Counted from the first letter of the stretch, positions 42,382 through 55,330 are shown. The stretch: 64,000 nt of DNA from an uncultured Gemmatimonadota bacterium (GCA_964465015.1 CAYXHP010000150.1:8424-72423); one strand, 5' to 3'. Made by a program: numbers and translations. Notes: generated by a model not told the origin, from the letters alone.

Positions 42382-43167
42382 GTGCCTGGATTCGGCGTTC
42401 TCGCGCACCCGTGGTGGGTACCGGTCCTTTGGATCGTGGTCCTCGGTCATATCACCAACATCTGCAACACGTTGTATCTGCACCGCGGGGTCACGCACGG
42501 CGGGGTCGAGTTCAGCCCGCTGGCGAAGCACGTCATGCGCTTCTGGCTGTGGCTCACGACCGCCATCGTGACCCGCGAATGGGTCGCCGTCCACCGAAAG
42601 CACCACGCGTTCGCCGACCGCGAGGGGGACCCACATTCCCCCGAGGTGGAGGGCCTGTGGCCGATCCTCCTGGCCAACGTGTTCTTCTACCGCAAGGCGG
42701 CCAGTGACGCGGAGATCCTGGAGAAGTACGGCGAGGGCTGTCCCGAGGACTGGATCGAGCGCAACCTGTACCAGCGCTACCGGGCGCTCGGCATTCTCGT
42801 CATGCTCCTCCTGGACACCTATCTGTTCGGTCCCCTCGTCGGACTGATCGTTTGGTCGGCGATGACGGTGTGGATCCCGATCTTCGGAGGGGTGATCAAC
42901 GGCATCGGCCACGCCAAGGGCTACCGGAACTTCGGGACCCACGATCGCAGTCACAACATCTACCCGTGGGGCATCTGGATCCTGGGCGAGGAGCTGCACA
43001 ACAACCACCACGCGGATCCGCGCTCGGCCAAGTTCAAGGCCCACTGGTGGGAGTTCGACATCGGCTGGATGTACATTCAGCTCCTGCGCCTGTTCGGGCA
43101 GGCGAAGGTGATCTACGCGCGGACGGAGAGCGTCGAGGCGTTCGCGCGAAAGCACTACGGAGGCTGA
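42382..43167 (+). CDS. Acyl-CoA/acyl-lipid (delta9-type) fatty-acid desaturase
   Basis: GTG start after GAGAGGGAGG. His boxes HRGVTH, HRKHHAFAD and HNNHHADP. Confidence 0.82.
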   Translation: MPGFGVLAHPWWVPVLWIVVLGHITNICNTLYLHRGVTHGGVEFSPLAKHVMRFWLWLTTAIVTREWVAVHRKHHAFADREGDPHSPEVEGLWPILLANVFFYRKAASDAEILEKYGEGCPEDWIERNLYQRYRALGILVMLLLDTYLFGPLVGLIVWSAMTVWIPIFGGVINGIGHAKGYRNFGTHDRSHNIYPWGIWILGEELHNNHHADPRSAKFKAHWWEFDIGWMYIQLLRLFGQAKVIYARTESVEAFARKHYGG

Positions 43168-43224
43168 CGCCGGCCCACGGCGTCCGGCCCCGACCTCGAC
43201 CTCCGGTGGGCGCCTTGCAGACCG

Positions 43225-44595
43225 GTGGTGCGAGACATGAGCATGCGTGAGGCCTCCATCGGCACCCGGCCCGCGGGCCGCGACATCCCCCGGACGGGAG
43301 ACGGGGCCGGGCCGCGCCGGACGGTCGCCGACCCCCGGGTCGACATCTGCCGCCGCATGTTCGACCGGCTGCTCGGTCCCGCCGAGACCCGCGACTTCGC
43401 CGTCCGGTACTGGACCGGTTTGTCGGAAGGTCCGTCCGACCCGGTCTGCACCCTGGTCCTCCGCTGGCCGGGCGCGCTACGACGAATGTTGCTCCCTCCC
43501 ACGGAGCGATCGCTCGGCGAGGCCTACGTCTTCGACCACTGCGACGTGGAGGGCGACCTGGAAGCGGCGGTTCGCGTGCTCGCGCCCGCGTTGCACGACG
43601 TGTGGTCGCCCCGCCGTCTGGCGGAGCTGGCGGTGATGCTCCGGCGTCTGCCCGCCCGCCGGAACACGCGCGACGCCCCTCCCGGCGAGGCGATGGGGCG
43701 CGCGGGACCGACCCGTCGCGGCCGGCTCCACTCCCGGAACCGGGACGCCCGCTCGGTCCGGTTCCACTACGATCTCGGGAACGACTTCTACGCCCTGTGG
43801 CTCGATCCGTACATGCAGTACTCCAGCGGCTACTTTCCGCGGGGCGACGAGTCGCTGGAGGAAGGGCAGAAGTGCAAGCTGGACCTCCTGTGCCGGAAGC
43901 TGCAGCTCGAGCCCGGGCAGCGCCTCCTGGACATCGGCTGCGGGTGGGGCGGTCTGATCCGCTTTGCGGCCGAGCGCTTCGGCGTCCGGGCCACGGGGAT
44001 CACGCTGAGCGAGCCGCAGGCCGAGTTCGGCCGGCGACGGCTCGCGGAAGAGGGCCTCGCGGACCGGTGCGAGATCCGGGTGATGGACTACCGGGACCTT
44101 CCGGATCCGGAGCGCTTCGACGCCATCGTGAGCGTCGGCATGGTCGAGCACGTGGGTCGCGGCAAGCTACCCGAGTTCTTCGGGGCTGCTTTCCGCCACC
44201 TGGTGCCCGGAGGGCTGTTCCTGGACCAGGGGATCGTCACGCTGGACGACACGCGCCCGTGGCTGCGCCGGCTGCGGGAACGCGTGCTCGACCGCTGGAC
44301 CAGCTTCATCGAGAGCCACGTGTTCCCCGACGGCGAGCTGGTGACCACTGGGGAGCGACTCGCCCCCGCCGAGGCGGTCGGCTTCGAGACGCGGGACGTG
44401 ACCAGCCTCAGGGAGCACTACGCCACCACGCTCCGCCACTGGGTCGGGCGCCTGCAGGCCGCCCGCGAGGAGGCCGTGGCCCTGGTCGGACGTCCCACGT
44501 ACCGGGTGTGGGAGCTGTACATGGCGGGCTCCGCATACGGCTTCGCCTCGGGTCGGATCGGGGTCGTCCACGAGGTCTACCGAAGGCCCACCTGA
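43225..44595 (+). CDS. Cyclopropane-fatty-acyl-phospholipid synthase family methyltransferase
   Basis: FHYDLGNDFYALWLDPYMQYSSGYF and SAM motif LLDIGCGWGGL. Exact start is uncertain (several in-frame ATGs at 43225-43243). Confidence 0.85.
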   Translation: MVRDMSMREASIGTRPAGRDIPRTGDGAGPRRTVADPRVDICRRMFDRLLGPAETRDFAVRYWTGLSEGPSDPVCTLVLRWPGALRRMLLPPTERSLGEAYVFDHCDVEGDLEAAVRVLAPALHDVWSPRRLAELAVMLRRLPARRNTRDAPPGEAMGRAGPTRRGRLHSRNRDARSVRFHYDLGNDFYALWLDPYMQYSSGYFPRGDESLEEGQKCKLDLLCRKLQLEPGQRLLDIGCGWGGLIRFAAERFGVRATGITLSEPQAEFGRRRLAEEGLADRCEIRVMDYRDLPDPERFDAIVSVGMVEHVGRGKLPEFFGAAFRHLVPGGLFLDQGIVTLDDTRPWLRRLRERVLDRWTSFIESHVFPDGELVTTGERLAPAEAVGFETRDVTSLREHYATTLRHWVGRLQAAREEAVALVGRPTYRVWELYMAGSAYGFASGRIGVVHEVYRRPT

Positions 44596-44681
44596 CGAGC
44601 GGCCACGTCTCGGCCGAGTCCGACGGCATCCGGCTCGGTCGCCTCGGCACGGAGACGGCACGCGGCCCGGCGGACGCCGAC

Positions 44682-45917
44682 GTGGGTCCCGGCCGACGAA
44701 TCCTGACCCTGAACGCGGGTTCCTCCAGCCTCCGCTTCTCGCTCCACCGGATCGGCCGGGCCGAGGAGCGGCTCCTGGCCGGACGCGCCGCGGGACTCGG
44801 AGGGCCCGCCGCCGAGCTCCAGGTCGAGGACGGCGCCGGCCACCCCCTGGACGACGTCCCGCTGGCCAGCTCCACGCACCGCGACGCCGTGGCGGCCGTC
44901 CTGGACTGGCTGGTCGGACCGGGCTCCTCGTCATGCGGTCCGATGGGGGCTCGGCCGGATGCGGTCGGGCACCGGATCGTCCACGGGGGGGAGCGCTTCG
45001 TGCGACCCGCGCGGGTGACCCCGGAGGTGACGGCCGAACTCGAGCGGCTGGTGCCGCTGGCCCCCGACCACATGCCCGCCGAGCTCTCCGTGGTGCGGGC
45101 CGTCTCGGAGGCGTTCCCGGACGTGCCCCAGGTCGTGTGCTTCGACACGGCGTTCCATCGGACGATGCCGGCTGTGGCCCGCCGCCTTCCGCTGCCGCCG
45201 CTACCCGGGGATGTCCGGGTCGAGCGCTACGGCTTCCACGGCCTCTCCTACGAGTACCTGCGGGCGCGGCTGAGGGAGATCCACGGCTCCGCCTCCCTCC
45301 CGGAGCGCATCGTCCTCGCTCACCTGGGGAGCGGCGCCAGCCTGGCCGCGCTGCGTCGCGGTCGGCCGGTGGATACGACCATGGGCTTCACGCCGGCCGG
45401 CGGCCTGATGATGTCCACCCGGCCCGGCGACCTGGATCCGGGCATCCTCCTCTACCTCCTGCGGGAGCAGTACCTCTCGGCCGCCGAGCTGGACGACCTG
45501 GTGAACCGGCGCGCGGGCCTGGCGGGCGTCTCGGGCACGACCCCGGACATGCGGCGGTTGCTGGAGACGGAGGGCGAGGATGACCGGGCCGCGGCGGCCG
45601 TCGAGCTGTTCTGCTATCTGGCGGTGAAGCAGCTGGGCGCCATGGCCGCCGTGCTCGAGGGGCTGGACACGCTGGCCTTCAGCGGTGGGATCGGAGAGCG
45701 CTCCGCTCCGATCCGGCGCAGGATCGCCTCCGGAGCCGCCTTCCTGGGAGTGCGGCTGGACGACGCGAGCAACGAGCGGGGGGACCCGGTGATCTCGGCG
45801 CCTCGATCGGAGGTGACCGTGCGCGTCATTCCCGCGAACGAAGAACTCATGATCGCCCGGCACGCGGCCGCCGTGCTGGATGGTCGAGAGGACGGCTGGC
45901 GCGCGCCGCAGGGCTGA
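44682..45917 (+). CDS. ackA: Acetate/propionate kinase
   Basis: Motifs ILTLNAGSSSLRF, GHRIVHGG, FDTAFH, YGFHGLSYEY and AHLGSGASL. GTG 44682 is chosen by N-terminal length, so the start is uncertain. Confidence 0.85.
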   Translation: MGPGRRILTLNAGSSSLRFSLHRIGRAEERLLAGRAAGLGGPAAELQVEDGAGHPLDDVPLASSTHRDAVAAVLDWLVGPGSSSCGPMGARPDAVGHRIVHGGERFVRPARVTPEVTAELERLVPLAPDHMPAELSVVRAVSEAFPDVPQVVCFDTAFHRTMPAVARRLPLPPLPGDVRVERYGFHGLSYEYLRARLREIHGSASLPERIVLAHLGSGASLAALRRGRPVDTTMGFTPAGGLMMSTRPGDLDPGILLYLLREQYLSAAELDDLVNRRAGLAGVSGTTPDMRRLLETEGEDDRAAAAVELFCYLAVKQLGAMAAVLEGLDTLAFSGGIGERSAPIRRRIASGAAFLGVRLDDASNERGDPVISAPRSEVTVRVIPANEELMIARHAAAVLDGREDGWRAPQG

Positions 45918-45966
45918 AGATCCCGGGAACCCGGCCGGTCGCCGGGCCCCACCAGCGTGGTCGCGT

Positions 45967-47634
45967 CTACTCGCCTCGGCCCGCCACCGTGGCCGCCGCC
46001 CGTGTCAGGATCACCGCCGACGAAGACGACATCTCCTCGTACTCGCCCACGAAGCGGTCGGTCTCGGTCGCGTGCCAGCCGGCCAGGTTGTGCGCCCAGC
46101 GGTAGGCGATCGGCTGGTACCACAGCTCGGCCAGCACGTGATAGGGGCCCGAGGCTCCGCCCAGGGGCACGCGGTAGACGACTCGGTCCCCGCCGGCCCG
46201 GAAGTCCGGGTCGGACGAGGCCGACCCGCGCACGGCGATGTCCGCCTCCGCCGCCTCCTTTCGGAAGCCCTCCGGGAGCAGGCGGTTGTCCTTGATGAAC
46301 CGCACGGCGCGCAGGAGTCCCGTCGTGACCGTCCCGGCCGGATCGACCATGATCGCCTCGTAGATCTGGACCTGGTCAGGATCGGTCACCTCCAGGTAAT
46401 GCGGTTCGAGGCGCCCGGGGTCCGCGTCGTTGTCGTTCCCGGCGATTCGGCCCGACGGGTCGAGGGCCCCGGACTCGAACACGGTCGTCCCGTCACGGTC
46501 GGTGACCTTCACGTGCAGCCAGACGCGGCGGGATGGATAGGCGGTCGGGAGCTTGTGACCCGCCAGGTTCGCGACCCGGATGGAGGCCACGAGGCGGGCG
46601 CCGGAGAGGGTGGCTGTCTCGATGTCGAGGCGGGCGGCCCTCGTCTCCAGGTGCTCGATGGTACGCCGTACCGCCGCGTCCAGCTCGGGCGCGGGAACCG
46701 GCACGCCGAGATCCGCCGCATGCCGGTTCAGGATCCGGAGCATGACGAAGTTCCCACCGCGGAACGTGTGGCGGTGCACGTTGGCCCGCGGGATCCCGAG
46801 CACGCCGGTGACGGGCACGCTGTCCTCGACGACCGGCATGTGACACGACTGGCAGCTGGTGCCCGTCCGCCCGTAGGCGCTGTGCCGCCACTCGAGGTAC
46901 GGGACCTGCTCGGGAAGCTCGCCGACGACGTTCCCGGTCTCGTCCAGAGCGGAGGTGTAGAGCGTGTGGCAGGTGGCGCACAGCTCCGAGCTCGCGGTGT
47001 GCGCGGAGCGCTGGGGACGGAATCCCGTGGCCGATCGCATCAGCCGCGCCCGGCCGCTGTCGACCGCGAACGGACCGTACACGGGTCGTCGATCCGGAGG
47101 CGAGACACTGTCGAAGGCGAACCGGCCGACGAAGCTCGCTCGCGTGCCCAGCTTCTCGGAGGCGATCTGGTGGCACGCCGTACACGACACGCCGTCAGCG
47201 GCGAGGACGTCCGAGCGGGTCGGGGGAGCCGCGCCGGGCGGGCGGGCGAACGGCAGGTGCGCGAACACCCGCGCCGCACCCCCCGCCGCCAGGGCCTCGT
47301 AGTGCGACATGGGCATGTGACAGGTGGAGCACTCGTTCTCGATCGCCGCCGCGTGTCCGGCGTGCTCCAGCGATTCCCGCCGTACGGCCGCCTGCCAGTA
47401 CGGATCGCGTCCCGAGTGGGCCATCATGGTCGCCTGCCAGCCGGCCCCGATCGACACGTCCTCTCCGGACGGCGAGACGATACCGTTATGGCACCCGAAG
47501 CACTGGTCCGAGCTGGCGAACAGCGTCTTTCCAGGCCCCTGCGTCCCGGTGGCCGGGGCGCTCTGCCCCACGGCGGGTGACGCCGAGGCGACGAGGACCA
47601 CGCATGCGGCCAGGAGCTTCATCTCGTGCTTCAT
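45967..47634 (-). CDS. Secreted pentahaem c-type cytochrome with non-haem C-terminal domain
   Basis: GGGGGAG RBS. Signal peptide MKHEMKLLAACVVLVASASPAVGQ. Five CXXCH motifs (CFGCH, CSTCH, CTACH, CATCH, CQSCH). The C-terminal ~250 aa has no haem motifs. Confidence 0.85.
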   Translation of the reverse strand: MKHEMKLLAACVVLVASASPAVGQSAPATGTQGPGKTLFASSDQCFGCHNGIVSPSGEDVSIGAGWQATMMAHSGRDPYWQAAVRRESLEHAGHAAAIENECSTCHMPMSHYEALAAGGAARVFAHLPFARPPGAAPPTRSDVLAADGVSCTACHQIASEKLGTRASFVGRFAFDSVSPPDRRPVYGPFAVDSGRARLMRSATGFRPQRSAHTASSELCATCHTLYTSALDETGNVVGELPEQVPYLEWRHSAYGRTGTSCQSCHMPVVEDSVPVTGVLGIPRANVHRHTFRGGNFVMLRILNRHAADLGVPVPAPELDAAVRRTIEHLETRAARLDIETATLSGARLVASIRVANLAGHKLPTAYPSRRVWLHVKVTDRDGTTVFESGALDPSGRIAGNDNDADPGRLEPHYLEVTDPDQVQIYEAIMVDPAGTVTTGLLRAVRFIKDNRLLPEGFRKEAAEADIAVRGSASSDPDFRAGGDRVVYRVPLGGASGPYHVLAELWYQPIAYRWAHNLAGWHATETDRFVGEYEEMSSSSAVILTRAAATVAGRGE

Positions 47635-47653
47635 GGCTCCCCCTGTGCCCCGG

Positions 47654-48820
47654 TCACCAGCCCTCGAGCGGTCCACCGTCGAACCAGTCCCACAGCACGT
47701 AGACCAGGAGCTGGGCGCTCCTCCCCTCCCGTTCGTTGAGGGGGAGGAGCACGCCGATGTTGGCCATGACGTGCTGACGGCGGCTGAGCGTCACCTGCAT
47801 CTGCGGCACCAGATCCCAGAGGGCCGGCTCGCCGGCCGCGAACTCCCGCTTGCCCAGCAGCTCGACCATCGGGGACCAGGCGCGTCCCCAGCGCCCCTCC
47901 ACGAAAGTCCGGCCCACCGCCACGCGCCAGAATCCCTCGTCGGCCCCGGGGCCGGTGGGAAGCTCCAGGCCGAACTGGGCGTGCAGGAAGCCATCTCCGG
48001 GCAGGAGCTGACCCAGGCTCGCGAATGGCTCGAACACGGTCGAACCCTTGCCGAATCCCTCGGACGGGTCGCCCGTGGGGAGGACGGCTTCCGCCGTGAG
48101 GCTGGCGATGGTGCCGCTGGCGTGACTGTGGAAGAGGTCGCGCTTGACGCCCACGGCCACGTCGCCCAACCCACCCTTCCAGTCCACCACGGGCGTGCCC
48201 CCCCGGTCGACGGTCCTCTGCAGGAAGCCGAACGGAACCGCGACCTCGATCTGGTTCCTGGCTCCGATCCGGTGCTCGTAGACGACCTCGTTCATCACCG
48301 CGCCCGAGCCCTCGACGTCCAGCGTCGTGCTCCACACGAGCTCGTCCTCCGGGTACGCCTTCTCCGTCACCAGGGGCCGGGGGAGGTTGAGCTCTCCTCG
48401 CGGCCACGCGTCGTCGCCACAGAACGCGCGCAGGCGCTCCACCGCCGCCTCGACCTGGCGATCGGACAGGAGATCGCCGAACGCCGGCATCATGCGGGCG
48501 AAGCCGCGCGCGGGACCTCCCTCGTGGATGATGGCCATCCAGTCGGAGTCCGGCTCGCGGCTGGCGAAATTGCAGTCCGTGAAGTCCGGGAGCGGCGTGT
48601 CGAAGCCGACCCGCGACTTCGGGGCGCCCCGGCCGTCCACGCCGTGGCAGTTGGCGCACGCGGTTCGAAACACATCGGCGGGGTGGACCAGCCCATCCAG
48701 GAGGCGGGGACCGTCCGTGTCCGCCTCCTGTCCGCGCAGGCCCGTCGGCAGCATCCCGGCCGTCAGGAGCAGGGAGATGCAGAGGAGGGTGCCGCGCCGC
48801 GTGTTGTCGGGCATCCGCAT
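47654..48820 (-). CDS. Monohaem cytochrome c domain fused to a putative outer-membrane beta-barrel
   Basis: Signal peptide LLCISLLLTAGMLPTGLRGQ. A single CANCH with a downstream MMPAFG (candidate Met ligand). Then ~270 aa of alternating-pattern, Gly/aromatic-rich sequence ending ...DGGPLEGW (aromatic C-terminus like an OMP beta-signal). Confidence 0.75.
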   Translation of the reverse strand: MRMPDNTRRGTLLCISLLLTAGMLPTGLRGQEADTDGPRLLDGLVHPADVFRTACANCHGVDGRGAPKSRVGFDTPLPDFTDCNFASREPDSDWMAIIHEGGPARGFARMMPAFGDLLSDRQVEAAVERLRAFCGDDAWPRGELNLPRPLVTEKAYPEDELVWSTTLDVEGSGAVMNEVVYEHRIGARNQIEVAVPFGFLQRTVDRGGTPVVDWKGGLGDVAVGVKRDLFHSHASGTIASLTAEAVLPTGDPSEGFGKGSTVFEPFASLGQLLPGDGFLHAQFGLELPTGPGADEGFWRVAVGRTFVEGRWGRAWSPMVELLGKREFAAGEPALWDLVPQMQVTLSRRQHVMANIGVLLPLNEREGRSAQLLVYVLWDWFDGGPLEGW

Positions 48821-49067
48821 CGGAAGCTCCTGGTCCGTGAGCGGGCATACGCCACCCGCGAGCGCGGGAGCGGGAGTGGGTCGACAGCGGACAGCAGCGT
48901 GGCTCGATGATCAGATTAGGCAGGACGAGAGCGCCGCACTATCGGAGAAAGCGCTTGAGTCCGCGTGGGAGAATCCCCGACCCGGCCATGCGGCGCCCCT
49001 CCCGCCGAGGACGACGACGGCGCCCATCACCGATGTCCCGCGCGAGGACGCACCGGAGTCGAGCGAC

Positions 49068-49110
49068 GGGGGGCGCGGCCTCCGGCTGCCACCCGGAGGC
49101 CGCGCCCCCC
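49068..49110 (-). terminator. Perfect 18-bp GC stem-loop downstream of the pcm-fusion gene
   Basis: GGGGGGCGCGGCCTCCGG-ctgccac-CCGGAGGCCGCGCCCCCC, 15 nt beyond the stop at 49125. No U-tract. Confidence 0.55.
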
Positions 49111-49124
49111 GCCGACCCGACCGG

Positions 49125-51140
49125 TCAGACGCCGAACGGATAGGTCTCGGGCATCCCCCGGATGTCGGGACCACTGAGCGGGCGCACGGCGCTCGTGCGG
49201 TCGAACCACACGTATTCGTCGAACTGGCGTGGAAGTACGGCCTGGAAGTAGTGGCTGGCGACCTCGGTCTCGGGCCGGTACAGGACGCCGATGGCCCGCT
49301 CGAGCCGGGGCACCGCGAGCTCGCTCCGGACCTCCGGCCGAACGGGCTCCCTGAGATGGAGGAGTCCGGCCTCGATGCAGGCATCGTGGAAGAGGCGCTC
49401 GTAGCTCTCCGGATGAGCGGGCCGGACGTCTTTGACCTCCATGGGTCCGTCCCACTCCGACGCCGCCGCCACGGTGCCCGAGTCCGTCCCGAAGCCCACC
49501 AGGTACGCCTGGTCGCCGAAGCGCTCGCGACACAGCTGGCCCACGTTGAACTCGCCCCTCACGCCCATCTCGGTGGCGCTGGCATCCCCTATGTGGGAGT
49601 TGTGCTCCCACACCACCGCCTTCGACTCCGCGCCCCGGAAGGCGAGCAGCGTGGACAGGGTGTCGAACATGTGCCGATCCCGGAGATTCCACGACTCGAC
49701 CGAGCCGTAGTACATCACCCGGTAGTATCGCTCCGCGTTCGCGACCAGGCGCGCGTTCTGCACCGCGTCCAGGAACAGCTCGCCGTCTCGCCGGGCGTAG
49801 TCGATCCTCCGCTCCAGGAGCTCGCGGAGGATCTCGACCACTTCGGACTCGCATGTCCGGTAGCTGCCCGTGAGCGCGGCGCGCCCGTACACCGCCGGGT
49901 CCCGTTCCCACGGCGTCAGGCACCCGTAGCGGATCCGGGCCACCCGCGCGGAGTCCGGGTCCACGCGGTCCAGGTACTCGAGGACCGCCTCGATGGAGCG
50001 GAACAGGCTGTAGAGGTCCAGCCCGTGAAAACTCACCCGATCTTCCGCATTGCGACTCTCGTTCCAGCCCCGCAGCCACTCCACGAAGTCCCGGACGTCG
50101 TGGTTCCTCCACATCCAGGTCGGGAAGCGGGAGAAGGCGGTCCACTCGGGAGGCGGCGTCTCACGCAGCCGCGCGTAGTGGTCGATCTTCGCGGCGTCCG
50201 GCCAGTCCGCCTCGACGGCCACCAGGCGAAAGCCCTTCCGCTCGACGAGCTCGCGGGTGATCCGGGCACGCATGCGGTAGAATTCGGAGGTCCCGTGCGT
50301 CGCCTCGCCCAGGAGGACCACGCGGGCGTCGCCCACCCGCTCGACCAGCGAGCCGAGCTCGACCTCCGAGATCTCCTCGATGGGCACCGTCGTCTCCCGG
50401 AGGAGCCGCAGCACCGGCTCCCCGGCGCCCGGGTGCGCGGGGGCCGCGACCACGGATGCCGGGGCGGTGCCCTCGAGCTCCTCGAGGCCGCCTTCGGCCC
50501 AGCCGGCCTGGCCGACCAGCGGCACGAAGCGCACGGACTCCATGGTCCCCGTCTCGAACCGGTCCTCGCCCCGGCGGACCACGCGCACCAGCCGCTGCGA
50601 GCGCAGGGTCTCGCCGACCGGGACCACCAACGCCGCCCCGTCGGCGAGCTGCTCGAGGAGGGGTCGCGGGATCTCCGGACCGCCGGCGGCGACCGCGATC
50701 CCGCCGTAGGGCGCATGCTCGGGCCACCCCAGCGAACCGTCCCCGTGGCGCACCTCGATGTTGTCGTAGCCCAGCCGGGCGAACAGCTCGCGGGCCGCGT
50801 CGGCCAGCGCCTCGTGCCGCTCGATCGTATACACGCGCGAGGCGATCCGGCTGAGAACGGCCGCTGCGTAGCCCGAGCCCGTCCCCACGTCCAGCACGCT
50901 CTCGCCGCCCTCGAGGCCCAGGGCCTCGAGCATGCGCGCCACGATGTACGGCTGGGAGATGGTCTGTCCCTCGCCGATCGGGAGCGGCGCGTCCTCGTAG
51001 GCGAACTCCCGGAGCTCCGGGGCGATGAAAGCCTCCCGGGGGACCCGGCTCATGGCCTCCAGGACCCGGGTGTCGCGAATCCCGCGTCCCCGGAGGTCCC
51101 GCTCCACCATGCGGGTGCGCCGCGCCTCGAGGCTCGTCAT
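49125..51140 (-). CDS. Protein-L-isoaspartate O-methyltransferase fused to an erythromycin-esterase-like (EreA/ChaN-superfamily) domain
   Basis: GGAGGGAG RBS before ATG 51140. Pcm motifs GQTISQPYIVA and VLDVGTGSGY. C-terminal half has LLGEATHGTSEFY, WPDAAKID and WEHNSHIGD. Confidence 0.82.
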   Translation of the reverse strand: MTSLEARRTRMVERDLRGRGIRDTRVLEAMSRVPREAFIAPELREFAYEDAPLPIGEGQTISQPYIVARMLEALGLEGGESVLDVGTGSGYAAAVLSRIASRVYTIERHEALADAARELFARLGYDNIEVRHGDGSLGWPEHAPYGGIAVAAGGPEIPRPLLEQLADGAALVVPVGETLRSQRLVRVVRRGEDRFETGTMESVRFVPLVGQAGWAEGGLEELEGTAPASVVAAPAHPGAGEPVLRLLRETTVPIEEISEVELGSLVERVGDARVVLLGEATHGTSEFYRMRARITRELVERKGFRLVAVEADWPDAAKIDHYARLRETPPPEWTAFSRFPTWMWRNHDVRDFVEWLRGWNESRNAEDRVSFHGLDLYSLFRSIEAVLEYLDRVDPDSARVARIRYGCLTPWERDPAVYGRAALTGSYRTCESEVVEILRELLERRIDYARRDGELFLDAVQNARLVANAERYYRVMYYGSVESWNLRDRHMFDTLSTLLAFRGAESKAVVWEHNSHIGDASATEMGVRGEFNVGQLCRERFGDQAYLVGFGTDSGTVAAASEWDGPMEVKDVRPAHPESYERLFHDACIEAGLLHLREPVRPEVRSELAVPRLERAIGVLYRPETEVASHYFQAVLPRQFDEYVWFDRTSAVRPLSGPDIRGMPETYPFGV

Positions 51141-52505: not shown

Positions 52506-55064
52506 CTAGTGGGCGAACCAGTAGGAGATCTTCACCAGGAAGGTGTCGCTCGCCCGCTGGTCGAACAGGTGCCCGAAGTCTCCCCCGAAGCCCCGACTTC
52601 CCTCCAGGTCGGCGGACGCGCCGCGACCCTCGCTCCAGACCAGGAACAAGGTCGAGCCGGGTCGATACTCCCAGCGAAAGACCACGTTCGACCGGAACTG
52701 CTGGAAGTTGAATCCTCCCGGATCGCCGGCCACGGACGGGTCTCCGTAGGGCCGGTACCGGTCCGCGTACGAGGCCGCTCTCGGCGTCGCCGAGAGTTCG
52801 CGCACGTCGCTGTAGCTTCCCTTGGACACGAACGGCGAGGCGTACACCTGCAGGGTGGCGGTGGGGGAGAACGTGTAGTCCAGGCGCCACGTGAGGCTCA
52901 ACTCCTTCTGCTCCAGGTGCGCGAACGTGTAGTGGAGGCCCCCGAGCGAGTCGGTGAATGTCCCGTAGAACTGGTGGTCGTCGTGGTTACGGGTGTAGCC
53001 GGCGCTCAGGGACGTGGTGAGTCGGCTGCTCACCTTGAGGTCCACCTCCGGCGAGAGGTTGATGCGACTCGAGCGTCCTCCGTCCCGCCGCGAATAGTTG
53101 ACCCACAAGTAGGGCACGAGCGCGTGGCGATCATCGCCGCTGATGCCGCCCCACGGGGCGAAGTACGGGTCCTGCCGCACCGCCGGACCACCCCTGGCGC
53201 AGCGATCGCAGTAGGTGGTTCCGAGCTGGCCCAGCGTTCCGCCCAGATGCAGCCACCAGCGGTTGTTGAATTGCGTGTGAACGTTGGTGTTGAACGCCAG
53301 CTCGGTCGGGAGCCCCGCCAGGCTCCAGTACTCCCAGTTGTTGAAGTTCCACTGCAGCGACTGGAAGACGGCGTTCGGCGTCCGGAAGTGCAGGGCCGCC
53401 CACGTGGTCCACTCCTGCTGGTCGGCCTGTTGCAGGAACCCGATATCGTTGATCTCGAAGCCCGGGGTCCGCCGCTGGTAGGCGGTCTCGAAGCTGAGCG
53501 TCTTCCCTCCCACCTTGGCGAAGCGCAGCTCGAGATTGGACCCGCTCAGCGACGTGCGGGTGGAGTCGAAGGTGAGGGGTCCGTCGGGGCGCTGGTACAG
53601 GTGCACGGCGGTCCGCTGCGTGCGGGCGATGGCGGCCTCCGTGCCGGCCACCCGGCTGACGTCGAGCCTCCCCGAGACCTCGAATCGTCCGGCGAAGCGT
53701 CGCCGCGCATCCAGCCCCGCGGAGTACGCGCTGCGGTGCAGGTAGGGCGCGCTCGTGGAGTCCAGCCACCGGTTCACCGCCGTCACGATGAAGCCCAGGC
53801 TCCCGTTCCCTCCGTCGTAGTCCTGGTTCCCCCGGATCACCGCGTAGTTCGCGGCGGGCTCGAGCGTGGTGCCGCCCGGGCCGCCGACATGCCGGGTCAC
53901 GGCGTCCAGCGCGCCGATGGAGAGCCCACCCGGGAACCGGCCGGTGAGCTTCCCGGCCCCGAGGATGTCCGTCGACGTAGGCGACGCGTCGTTGCCGTAC
54001 TCGTCGACCAGCTCGGGAGCACGCCCGATACGCCGGGAGTAGAACAGCCCTTCCCCGGTGTTGCAGTCCACCACGACGACGCAGTTCACCGGGAAGTCGA
54101 ACAGACCCTTGGCCTGGACGAAGAAGGGCCGTCGCTCGGAGTAGAAGGTCTCGAACGCGCCCAGGTTGAGGACCGAGGGATCGGCCTCCACCTGCCCGAA
54201 GTCGGGATTCACCGTCGCGTCCAGGCGCAGGTTGGAGGCGATGCGATAGGACAGGTCGCCTCCCACCGTGACCTGCTGGCTCCGGGCGAAGCCCGAGGAG
54301 GGCGGTCCCTGCACGTTCTTGGTCACCACGTAGGGAACGACCTCGGCCCGGTCCGGGCTACCCAGTCCGTCGAGGCCGGTGAGCTCCCCGAACTGGGACA
54401 CGAACCCCGACTTCGACGGCCGCCACAGTGGCCAGGTGTCGGTCTCGGTGTGTCGCTCGACGAACCTCCACAGCAGGATCCCGAACGTGTCGTCGCTGGC
54501 GGTCGAGTAGCGGAGCTGCGAGAGGGGGATCCGGTACTCGGCCGTCCACCCCAGTGAGTCCACGGAGGTCGCGACGTCCCAGACGGCGTCCCAGGCGTCG
54601 TCCTCCGTGCCATCGTTGTAGATGGCGCGATCCGCCTTCACGCCGGCCGGATTGACCCAGAACTCGTATCCGGTCCGCCGGTCGTGGTAGGAATCCAGCA
54701 GGACGACGAACTCGTCCGAGGCCGTGATGTCGTCCCTCCGGGAGAGCAATGCGGCGATGCTGTCGGGATGCGGGTCGAACGCGCGCACGAACACGTACAC
54801 GTGGTGCGCGTCGTAGGCCACCCGAGCCTCCGTCCGCATGCTCGGGTCGGCGCCCTCGTCCGGACGCGCCTCGCGGAAACGGGAGATCACCGGCGCCCGA
54901 CTCCAGACCGGGTCGTCGTCCCTTCCGTCGATCACGGGCGCCTGGACCGCTCGGGTCGCCTCGACCGTCGTCGCGGTCGGCGGCCCCGGCGGCGGGGGCG
55001 TCGGCGGAACCTGGAGCGCCAGCGCCAGGCCGAACAGCGTCAACAAGGGAGCCTCCGTTCTCAC
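52506..55064 (-). CDS. Large secreted/outer-membrane protein (CBM9-like N-terminus + DUF5916-like beta-rich body)
   Basis: Signal peptide. VIDGRDDDPVWSRAP...AYDAHHVYVFVRAFD (CBM9-like). About 700 aa of beta-rich sequence ending ...KISYWFAH. Confidence 0.7.
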   Translation of the reverse strand: MRTEAPLLTLFGLALALQVPPTPPPPGPPTATTVEATRAVQAPVIDGRDDDPVWSRAPVISRFREARPDEGADPSMRTEARVAYDAHHVYVFVRAFDPHPDSIAALLSRRDDITASDEFVVLLDSYHDRRTGYEFWVNPAGVKADRAIYNDGTEDDAWDAVWDVATSVDSLGWTAEYRIPLSQLRYSTASDDTFGILLWRFVERHTETDTWPLWRPSKSGFVSQFGELTGLDGLGSPDRAEVVPYVVTKNVQGPPSSGFARSQQVTVGGDLSYRIASNLRLDATVNPDFGQVEADPSVLNLGAFETFYSERRPFFVQAKGLFDFPVNCVVVVDCNTGEGLFYSRRIGRAPELVDEYGNDASPTSTDILGAGKLTGRFPGGLSIGALDAVTRHVGGPGGTTLEPAANYAVIRGNQDYDGGNGSLGFIVTAVNRWLDSTSAPYLHRSAYSAGLDARRRFAGRFEVSGRLDVSRVAGTEAAIARTQRTAVHLYQRPDGPLTFDSTRTSLSGSNLELRFAKVGGKTLSFETAYQRRTPGFEINDIGFLQQADQQEWTTWAALHFRTPNAVFQSLQWNFNNWEYWSLAGLPTELAFNTNVHTQFNNRWWLHLGGTLGQLGTTYCDRCARGGPAVRQDPYFAPWGGISGDDRHALVPYLWVNYSRRDGGRSSRINLSPEVDLKVSSRLTTSLSAGYTRNHDDHQFYGTFTDSLGGLHYTFAHLEQKELSLTWRLDYTFSPTATLQVYASPFVSKGSYSDVRELSATPRAASYADRYRPYGDPSVAGDPGGFNFQQFRSNVVFRWEYRPGSTLFLVWSEGRGASADLEGSRGFGGDFGHLFDQRASDTFLVKISYWFAH

Positions 55065-55330
55065 GGGTTCTCCTCTTGGACTCCATCAGCGCCTGGATGG
55101 TTGGGAGAGGAAATCCCTACACGCCCGCCCGGGCGACCGCGACTTCCCTACGGCCCCGGCTCCGGGGAGACGACACCCCCGGCGGGGTTTCTCCCCACAC
55201 GGGTGGCGTGGAGACTCCTTACAGACACCCCCGGAGGCCGGGACCATTCTAAGGGTCACGGAGGTTCCCGCTGGCCGCTGGTCGCGCACTCCGTCGCGAT
55301 CCGGGCGGTCGGCCCATCCGGAGGGCTGCC

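Follow-up and report, generated by a model that had tools for sequence, protein, structure and literature searches.

A cytochrome c–barrel fusion and its pentahaem partner form a candidate periplasmic redox module at an outer-membrane channel

Outer-membrane barrels are found together with cytochromes c in electron conduits, whose known barrels have 20-26 strands, and in Cyc2, where the number is about 16-17 (PMC8406198, PMC10654088, PMC6148476); porins also recur beside pentahaem proteins of the PHC fold, as in ExtI-ExtKL (PMC6148476) and ptdAB (bioRxiv 10.1101/2023.11.21.568154). Here we analyse a two-gene locus at positions 45967-48820 of a 64,000-nt stretch of DNA (the window; G+C ~72%) from an uncultured Gemmatimonadota bacterium (GCA_964465015.1, CAYXHP010000150.1:8424-72423), in which gene A encodes a class-I cytochrome c fused to a predicted outer-membrane barrel and gene B encodes a secreted pentahaem cytochrome. 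An initial annotation had read the two as a two-component conduit carrying electrons across the outer membrane through protein-bound haems; its barrel–cytochrome fusion and pentahaem partner stand in our analysis, but its trans-membrane haem conduit does not, as a plugged 12-stranded barrel with a lumen of ~10-12 Å would be too narrow. Instead we favour, at a probability of roughly one half, a self-contained redox module that would work at the periplasmic face of a small-molecule channel in the outer membrane.

Three groups of described proteins frame this comparison. COG4313 channels have been associated with molecules of hydrophobic or amphipathic character. In the crystal structure of one member, Pput2725, a segment at the N-terminus, ahead of the first strand, fills the lumen from the periplasmic side; the lumen measures only ~10-12 Å even without this plug, ions are conducted only at high voltage (the channel is nearly closed at physiological voltage), and transport by COG4313 proteins may go laterally into the membrane, not into the periplasm (PMC4493636). 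These barrels resemble autotransporter translocators, and pairwise identity within the family is typically <20% (PMC4493636). Among PHC proteins, MccSep (ExtKL) is a periplasmic homotetrameric polysulfide reductase with a five-haem cap and an Ig-like stem, whose haem 2 is ligated by a histidine and Cys239 and faced by Sec325, and for which the authors describe the passage of the substrate through the outer membrane as unknown (bioRxiv 10.1101/2025.11.18.688581); for another protein of this kind, 5ZE8, a role in sulfur metabolism has been suggested. Cyc2, finally, has the motif AxPxFAR[Q/K][T/Y] 5 residues upstream of its CXXCH and PxL 4 residues downstream (PMC8406198).

The two proteins and their pairing

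All coordinates are positions within the window, and those of genes A and B include the stop codon (Table 1). That neither open reading frame (ORF) arose by chance is indicated by a G+C content at third codon positions of 0.88-0.89 and by thousands of homologues (for gene A, 7170 of the 8000 candidates scored, at E<=1e-3; for gene B, all 8000 of the 8000 scored). The product of gene A opens with a putative signal peptide, modelled by AlphaFold2 (AF2) with a helix at residues 5-22, and contains exactly one CXXCH motif (CANCH, residues 55-59). Residues 47-128 exceed the Pfam cut-offs for PF13442 (32.6 bits) and PF00034 (27.8 bits), PF13442 matches all 45 aligned A-family members, and a PDB sequence search with A and its family profile returned CcoP, actinobacterial QcrC, c552 and c6 for the haem domain and no match for the barrel part. 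Met111, within MMPAFG, is invariant and is, to judge from the sequence, the axial ligand of a His/Met class-I haem; the equally invariant Cys83 and Cys134 likely form a disulfide. The reading frame, the Pfam matches and Met111 agree with the signal peptide and single class-I-like cytochrome c domain of the initial annotation, as does its statement that this domain is larger than that of Cyc2 (a full class-I domain of ~100 residues, versus a short one in Cyc2).

The C-terminal part of A, ~250 residues closing with ...WDWFDGGPLEGW (DGGPLEGW, terminal Trp), has the features of an outer-membrane β-barrel. In an AF2 model built from a 45-sequence alignment, residues ~160-378 are predicted as β-strands with block-mean predicted local distance difference test (pLDDT) scores mostly of 83-98; the cytochrome part is modelled with low confidence (pLDDT 43-70), as expected of a model lacking the haem. 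Foldseek comparison of the modelled barrel with the PDB ranked FapF first (5o68, E 6e-9) and Pput2725 next (4rl8, E 8e-7), followed by other 12-stranded barrels (for example, NanC and KdgM). By DSSP there are 13 strand segments, or 12 if residues 209-232 are read as one strand bulged at a conserved Gly-Asp; this reading would give a 12-stranded topology and would place the variable regions in extracellular loops (tip 201-213, then 289-294, 327-333 and 361-369) and the conserved short turns on the periplasmic side. The PF13557 profile scored 20.7 bits on the full window protein (cut-off 22) and 22.2 bits on its barrel alone, it matched 34 of the 45 A homologues at E<=0.01 (best 2.2e-11), and precomputed PF13557 matches exist on many A homologues. 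Structure prediction, fold comparison and profile search therefore all point to the barrel that had been proposed for this region, and not to a soluble domain.

Haem-less stand-alone PF13557 barrels of related genomes have two signature motifs of A, GDxxxGxK and LPTGD..GFGKG, in common with it (hhalign), and A residues 135-249 can be aligned, weakly (E=0.049), with a stand-alone barrel from residue 1 of its mature form. Since the alignment starts at that N-terminus, the cytochrome appears to be an N-terminal add-on to a complete COG4313 channel with its plug. By its modelled fold, the barrel of A is one of the COG4313/PF13557 small-molecule channels (folds of FapF and Pput2725), and by analogy its residues 139-159 would be the counterpart of the lumen-occluding N-terminal segment of these channels. 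Separately, stand-alone haem-less PF13557 barrels lie 2-4 genes downstream of the pair at two loci, L001 (12525-13385, Fodinibius salsisoli) and L086 (9915-10784, a JGI metagenome contig); that of L001 is flanked by small secreted or membrane proteins, among them one with a precomputed MamS_MamX match and no CXXCH.

For gene B, the secreted protein with five CXXCH motifs and a haem-free C-terminal domain, annotated 19 nt downstream of A, was confirmed. A longer ORF starting with GTG (47676) was rejected, as homologue N-termini favour the ATG at 47634, and so was a lipoprotein signal (LAAC, residues 8-11), the h-region being too short and a lipobox-like string occurring in just 4 of 120 homologues. 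The CXXCH motifs, at residues 45, 102, 151, 219 and 261, are all kept in 118 of 120 homologues, and a scan of mature B found no other haem motif and no Cys outside these five. The AF2 model (predicted template modelling score 0.83) has helices to residue ~330, followed by a β-rich C-terminal domain. Its sole significant structural neighbour in the PDB was 5ZE8 (Foldseek E 2.9e-12; target-normalised TM-score 0.65), with MtrC and OmcA as marginal matches (E 0.06-0.1, probability 0.13-0.21). A profile of 40 B homologues likewise matched 5ZE8 (E 1.8e-5), through the loop NLAGHKLPTAYPSRRVWL aligned with NLQPHAMPTGAPFRNLYL; here GHKLPTAYP of B pairs with PHAMPTGAP of 5ZE8 and GHSIPDGUP of MccSep, a GH-x-[IL]-P-x-x-X-P loop being common to the three. 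Relative to the MccSep/ExtKL loop (NHAGHSIPDGUPTPNRLVL) the spacing is identical, with Tyr366 of B at the Sec325 position, in an alignment that is non-significant alone (5.8 bits). Five-haem cap, Ig-like domain and His-x-x-Pro loop make B, as modelled, a member of the PHC fold. The initial annotation had named membership in a characterised periplasmic reductase family as a point against its conduit; B does fall within the fold family of such a reductase, with the catalytic residues of that enzyme absent.

Among family models, PF22113 (MtrC/MtrF pentahaem domain) scored 36.7 bits against a cut-off of 30 over residues 42-159 of B (haems 1-3). Other Pfam and NCBIfam matches were weak and generically multihaem (the ExtKL model, 36 bits against a cut-off of 250), NapC and c7 models fell below threshold, and the C-terminal domain alone matched no Pfam family. 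Assignment of B to NrfA was rejected (no CXXCK; PF02335 at 14.7 bits against a cut-off of 24.1, over only 23 residues). Across 120 B homologues, just three histidines outside the motifs are invariant (289, 360 and 412), so at least one or two of the five haems would not be bis-His ligated. Also invariant are Met71, Met107, Met199, Tyr79, Tyr366, Tyr425, Lys361 and Lys448 (His360 and Tyr366 each in 120 of 120), and polar motifs are conserved (RDPYWQ, VRRE, GELPEQxPYxEW, RHxFxGGNFF, NDNDAD, EPHY and KDNRLLPxGF). Near-invariant polar residues, together with a complement of distal histidines that is incomplete, suggest that B works as an enzyme, through a catalytic haem, rather than as a passive wire; if MccSep is a guide, the haem in question would be haem 2, which the Tyr366-bearing loop would face. 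Because B has no conserved lipobox and its relatives are soluble periplasmic proteins, it is probably soluble and periplasmic as well.

The pair is widespread, in many soil and sediment bacteria, and tightly kept, and each of its proteins has metagenomic homologues in the thousands. In a scan with one genome per species, A was encoded in at least 582 species-representative genomes, and among the matches listed the carriers were mostly Acidobacteriota (Vicinamibacterales, Bryobacterales, Thermoanaerobaculia and Aminicenantes), Gemmatimonadota and Balneolales/Rhodothermales, with a few Verrucomicrobiota and others; clustering of the A family at 50% gave a few dozen full-length clusters. Cultured carriers of the pair include Fodinibius salsisoli, F. 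sediminis DSM 21194, Longibacter salinarum and Rhodohalobacter sp. 8-1. In this survey of co-occurrence, B lay directly downstream of A on the same strand in 74 of the 83 loci, and the reverse look-up placed A directly upstream in 3 of 3 B homologues on long contigs, in line with the dedicated partner that the pentahaem gene had been taken for. All-against-all clustering of flanking ORFs from 82 loci yielded no conserved neighbour besides A and B (the next cluster covered 10 loci), and no regulator or stress-response gene was linked to the pair among the conserved neighbours of these loci. Protein identity to window A and B is 51-61% across phyla, and the G+C content of the pair follows that of the host (39-74%, r = 0.97), which together indicate that the genes are of long residence and under strong purifying selection; the same G+C tracking led us to reject recent horizontal transfer as the source of the high identity.

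Loci with A and no B (L042, L051, L052, L053, L054, L059, L066 and L070, all Gemmatimonadota and several of them 'Candidatus Palauibacter') have either a ~260-aa protein downstream of A or a dihaem cytochrome upstream. The former, a secreted protein with a C-terminal CarboxypepD_reg-like β-sandwich, adjoins A in L052 (9076-9858) and L059 (9096-9905); in L042 and L051, A has a divergent dihaem cytochrome on its upstream side and a nitroreductase-family gene downstream. These arrangements suggest that partners of A have been swapped. In L002/L005 (9079-10784; a long-read Rhodothermales metagenome-assembled genome, MAG), B is called as three ORFs of 56, 434 and 88 aa and recovered by tblastn as two segments, probably reflecting frameshift errors and not a real split or recoded stop.

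A proposed channel-docked redox module and its alternatives

In the reading that we favour, a small redox-active substrate to which general porins are ill suited would cross the outer membrane through or along the barrel of A and would be oxidised or reduced by B right at the periplasmic exit, with electrons passing between the haem chain of B, the tethered haem of A and the general periplasmic cytochrome pool; no haem chain would span the membrane. As the lumen-occluding segment would fill the barrel, the ~100-residue cytochrome domain would have to hang at the periplasmic mouth, and we infer by family analogy that the single haem of A is tethered there; contact between A and B and an enzymatic role for B are putative. 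The class-I His/Met haem fits either role that such a module might require: it could take up electrons from an oxidising enzyme of low potential, or supply them to an enzyme that reduces a high-potential oxidant.

Several points weigh against this reading. The position of the cytochrome relative to the barrel rests on family precedent and size arguments (pLDDT 43-70 for the cytochrome), the alignment of Tyr366 with the selenocysteine of MccSep is not significant alone (5.8 bits), and a small substrate, A–B contact and the localisation are all postulated. Eight Gemmatimonadota loci have A without B, so A can evidently work without it. The module lacks a quinone-pool link of its own and would fit many functions, and if the closure or lateral transport described for Pput2725-like channels holds here, the logic of a channel feeding an enzyme weakens.

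A second explanation, which we consider unlikely, is that the pair is a widespread outer-membrane redox gate resembling a Cyc2-like oxidase, in which a diffusible extracellular reductant (for example, Fe2+ or a hydroquinone shuttle) would enter the acidic pore and be oxidised by the A haem at the periplasmic opening, and B would serve as a periplasmic electron acceptor or capacitor relaying electrons onward to the respiratory chain, giving electron uptake without a haem chain, near to what the initial annotation had envisaged; candidate reductants are Fe2+, reduced humic or quinone shuttles and sulfur species. His/Met class-I haems are typically of high potential and would suit such an oxidation. 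The layout of signal peptide, one haem and then barrel is the same as in Cyc2, a dedicated multihaem partner is encoded downstream, and invariant acidic residues abound in the putative plug and the lumen (EKAYPEDE, D220, E244, D251, E264 and E295). In the published Cyc2 model, too, the cytochrome sits at the periplasmic opening and Fe2+ enters the pore (PMC8406198). However, stand-alone members that lack haem have the acidic plug and signature motifs too, so these are not redox-specific, PxFAR[QK][TY] is present in 0 of 120 homologues with no PxL after the CXXCH, and the barrel is of the 12-stranded COG4313 type, not 16-stranded and OprP-like. In addition, ions pass through Pput2725 at high voltage only, B is conserved like an enzyme, the hosts appear to belong for the most part to heterotrophic phyla of soil and saline settings, which are not known to oxidise iron, and oxidation of Fe2+ at the inner mouth would risk precipitating Fe(III) in the periplasm.

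It is quite unlikely, in our estimate, that the barrel is only an anchor that tethers the cytochrome c and has no transport role, the pair then being a periplasmic detoxifying or scavenging reductase that draws electrons from the cytochrome c pool to reduce, for example, peroxide, NO, nitrite or hydroxylamine. Class-I cytochromes of high potential are common electron donors to periplasmic reductases, two genes standing alone in variable contexts are typical of cytochrome-c-dependent detoxification genes, the invariant Tyr, His, Arg, Glu and Gln residues of B could build a site for a small oxidant, and B has weak similarity to NrfA around haem 5. Yet, at 51-61% identity between phyla, the full COG4313 signature and putative plug are kept far more strictly than an anchor would require; in B, CXXCK is absent and neither a Ca-site nor another NrfA hallmark was detected (its NrfA matches are below threshold), and the 82 loci revealed no linked regulator or stress-response gene.

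A true Mtr/PCA-type conduit, with the cytochrome of A or B within or through the barrel, or an autotransporter-like surface display of the A cytochrome, is highly improbable: although B exceeds the Pfam threshold for the MtrC/MtrF pentahaem domain (36.7 vs 30 bits) and A shares the autotransporter order of N-terminal globular domain, lumen segment and 12-stranded barrel, MtrC and OmcA are only marginal structural matches of B, B has no conserved lipobox (4 of 120), holo-cytochromes fold around their haem in the periplasm and make poor autotransporter passengers, and even with a surface-exposed cytochrome the barrel would remain unbridged by a cofactor. The size argument is decisive here. A 12-stranded lumen of ~10-12 Å could not hold a haem domain, for which known conduits need 20-26 strands (PMC8406198, PMC10654088, PMC6148476); with its plug in place, the barrel would accommodate neither the 100-residue cytochrome nor B in the manner of MtrA, and a single haem at the inner mouth would leave more than 25-30 Å of membrane, and with it the hydrophobic core of ~25 Å, without a cofactor, which makes a haem chain through the membrane implausible.

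Locus neighbourhood and feature coordinates

The initial annotation had placed convergent genes on both sides of the pair. Only the downstream acetate kinase gene, which ends at 45917, is convergent; the upstream neighbour lies on the same strand as the pair, 304 nt from A. Within that gap, a GC-rich hairpin begins 14 nt past the stop of the upstream gene, which it could serve as a high-GC-type terminator or a REP-like element; it probably ends the upstream transcript, leaving the pair as its own transcription unit. A scan for sigma-70 promoters and T-run terminators around the pair returned nothing (the hairpin escaped it because it has no T-run), and Rfam at E<=1 over 45800-49300 gave chance miRNA matches only, hence no riboswitch that would point to a ligand.

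Window neighbours are unrelated to the pair: a glycosyltransferase, CFA synthase, acetate kinase, the PCMT-esterase protein, a methyltransferase, a DUF5916 outer-membrane protein and a 2-oxoacid:ferredoxin oxidoreductase. The membrane protein of the downstream tandem has histidine-box motifs like those of a fatty-acid desaturase and no Pfam match at 1e-5. Farther upstream, 52506-55085 (minus) encodes a large secreted protein with CBM9-like and DUF5916 parts and an aromatic-rich C-terminus (...KISYWFAH), a probable outer-membrane protein by its sequence. Antisense ORFs cover both genes (45880-47580, plus strand, 566 aa; 47324-48910, plus strand, 528 aa), as is usual at 72% G+C, and such shadow ORFs form clusters across loci only through the conservation of the sense genes.

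Table 1. Coordinates of genes A and B, their parts and their immediate neighbours
Feature	Position	Strand	Description
Gene A	47654-48820	minus	ATG-started ORF, 388 aa; cytochrome c fused to a predicted COG4313-type outer-membrane barrel
Gene A ribosome-binding site (RBS)	48827-48831	minus	AGGAG, 7 nt upstream of the ATG
Gene A signal peptide	48731-48820	minus	Residues ~1-30, MRMPDNTRRGTLLCISLLLTAGMLPTGLRG; read from sequence (basic n-region, hydrophobic core)
A class-I cytochrome c domain	48407-48709	minus	Residues 38-138; Pfam PF13442/PF00034
A haem motif CANCH	48644-48658	minus	Within the cytochrome domain
A Met111 codon	48488-48490	minus	Within the cytochrome domain
A pre-barrel segment	48344-48406	minus	Residues 139-159, WPRGELNLPRPLVTEKAYPED, near-invariant
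A barrel	47657-48343	minus	Residues 160-388; predicted 12-stranded outer-membrane β-barrel, terminal Trp
A–B spacer	47635-47653	minus	19 nt after the TGA of A; RBS of B, GGGGGAG, at 47637-47643
Gene B	45967-47634	minus	ATG-started ORF, 555 aa; secreted pentahaem cytochrome, predicted PHC fold
B signal peptide	47566-47634	minus	MKHEMKLLAACVVLVASASPAVG; read from sequence, not of lipoprotein type
B helical five-haem cap	46645-47532	minus	Residues 35-330; from AF2 and motifs
B CXXCH motifs	47488-47502, 47317-47331, 47170-47184, 46966-46980, 46840-46854	minus	
B haem-free C-terminal domain	45970-46635	minus	Residues 334-555; predicted Ig-like β-sandwich with an insertion
B invariant loop	46525-46560	minus	GHKLPTAYPSRR; His360, Lys361, Tyr366
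Upstream neighbour	49125-51140	minus	One ORF; PCMT domain fused to an erythromycin-esterase domain (PF05139, E 3e-135)
GC hairpin	49068-49110	minus	Perfect 18-21 bp stem, 7-nt loop, no T-run; RNAfold -55.9 kcal/mol
Downstream tandem	42382-45917	plus	Membrane protein, CFA synthase (PF02353), acetate kinase; convergent with B

Significance and comparison with described systems

Full-text literature searches (fused cytochrome-porin, Cyc2, PF13557, pentahaem plus barrel) returned no description of the A–B pair, and in source records its homologues go under no other names than 'c-type cytochrome', 'transporter' or 'hypothetical protein'; A falls within the COG4313/PF13557 fold family, and its cytochrome fusion was not found described in the literature searched. 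For an outer-membrane protein, conservation at 51-61% identity between phyla is unusually tight. The pair makes it testable how substrates of periplasmic PHC enzymes cross the outer membrane, and its cultured carriers make genetics and biochemistry feasible. If the redox-gate reading were true, it would mean an unsuspected extracellular electron exchange in soil and sediment Acidobacteriota, Gemmatimonadota and Balneolota/Rhodothermota, and would provide the first example of an outer-membrane channel and a haem protein with substrate channelling between them.

Of the described systems, the COG4313/PF13557 channels (Pput2725, PDB 4RL8; TcpY; SphA; and the related FapF, PDB 5O65) share with A the 12-stranded barrel and the signature motifs; the counterpart in A of their N-terminal segment, which lies in the lumen ahead of strand 1, would be residues 139-159, placed there by weak alignment. 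Unlike these named characterised members, which have no cytochrome, A carries a ~100-residue class-I cytochrome N-terminally; it also differs in its adjoining multihaem gene (74 of 83 loci) and in its conservation, 51-61% across phyla versus the <20% pairwise identity typical of the channel family.

Cyc2 has the same succession of signal peptide, single-CXXCH cytochrome and outer-membrane barrel, but its barrel is 16-stranded and OprO/OprP-like and its cytochrome domain short, whereas A combines a predicted 12-stranded COG4313-type barrel with a full class-I domain, has a dedicated pentahaem partner and occurs in hosts not known as iron oxidisers. The surroundings of the haem motif in window A read HPADVFRTA-CANCH-GVDGRGAP, and the Cyc2 motif PxFAR[QK][TY] was found in 0 of 120 A-family members. 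Judged by this motif and the modelled strand type, membership of A in the Cyc2 family is excluded, in keeping with the caution of the initial annotation, which had claimed a common architecture but not homology.

A precedent for the pairing itself is ExtHIJKL of Geobacter sulfurreducens (ExtKL = MccSep, PDB 9WT8), where, as in A–B, a PHC pentahaem protein stands beside an outer-membrane barrel. That cluster was first read as an electron conduit, and its cytochrome was later shown to be a periplasmic enzyme; clusters of 'porin plus multihaem cytochrome' are thus easily over-read as conduits, and the same caution applies to the A–B locus. Unlike A, ExtI is a 21-strand barrel without a cytochrome, and the conserved neighbours of the B family include no rhodanese or ExtJ genes. 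MccSep has Sec325 and the haem-ligating Cys239, whereas B has an invariant Tyr366 at the Sec position, Glu239 aligned (at low confidence) with Cys239, and no free Cys, so that it could not use the MccSep chemistry; B is also ~100 residues longer, with an insertion in its C-terminal domain. Also in the PHC fold group are GSU2801, the sPHC and lPHC of cable bacteria, and the low-potential c552 of Thermochromatium tepidum (5ZE8), a soluble protein with the five-haem and Ig-like domains and the H-x-x-P-T loop of B. B is larger than 5ZE8, shares 15% identity with it and has Tyr366 where 5ZE8 has Ala.

The ptdAB genes, likewise found in Acidobacteriota, Gemmatimonadales and Verrucomicrobiales MAGs (bioRxiv 10.1101/2023.11.21.568154), belong to a seven-gene set, ptdABCDEFG, that includes tetrahaem and decahaem proteins, a flavoprotein and membrane proteins and, unlike A–B, has the pentahaem gene ahead of the porin gene. 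Identity of ptdAB with the A–B pair was rejected, as the operons differ by their descriptions and one MAG has both on different contigs: in the acidobacterial LB_ACB_1, the ptd operon lies on QQVD01000056 (Table S7, bioRxiv 10.1101/2023.11.21.568154) and the A–B pair on QQVD01000006 (L079). MtrCAB/PCA complexes, too, join a barrel to multihaem cytochromes, with 26 strands against the 12 predicted for A; A–B has neither room for a decahaem insert nor a surface lipoprotein cytochrome. Besides Cyc2 and Mtr/PCA, A–B thus adds a third combination of barrel and cytochrome at the outer membrane.

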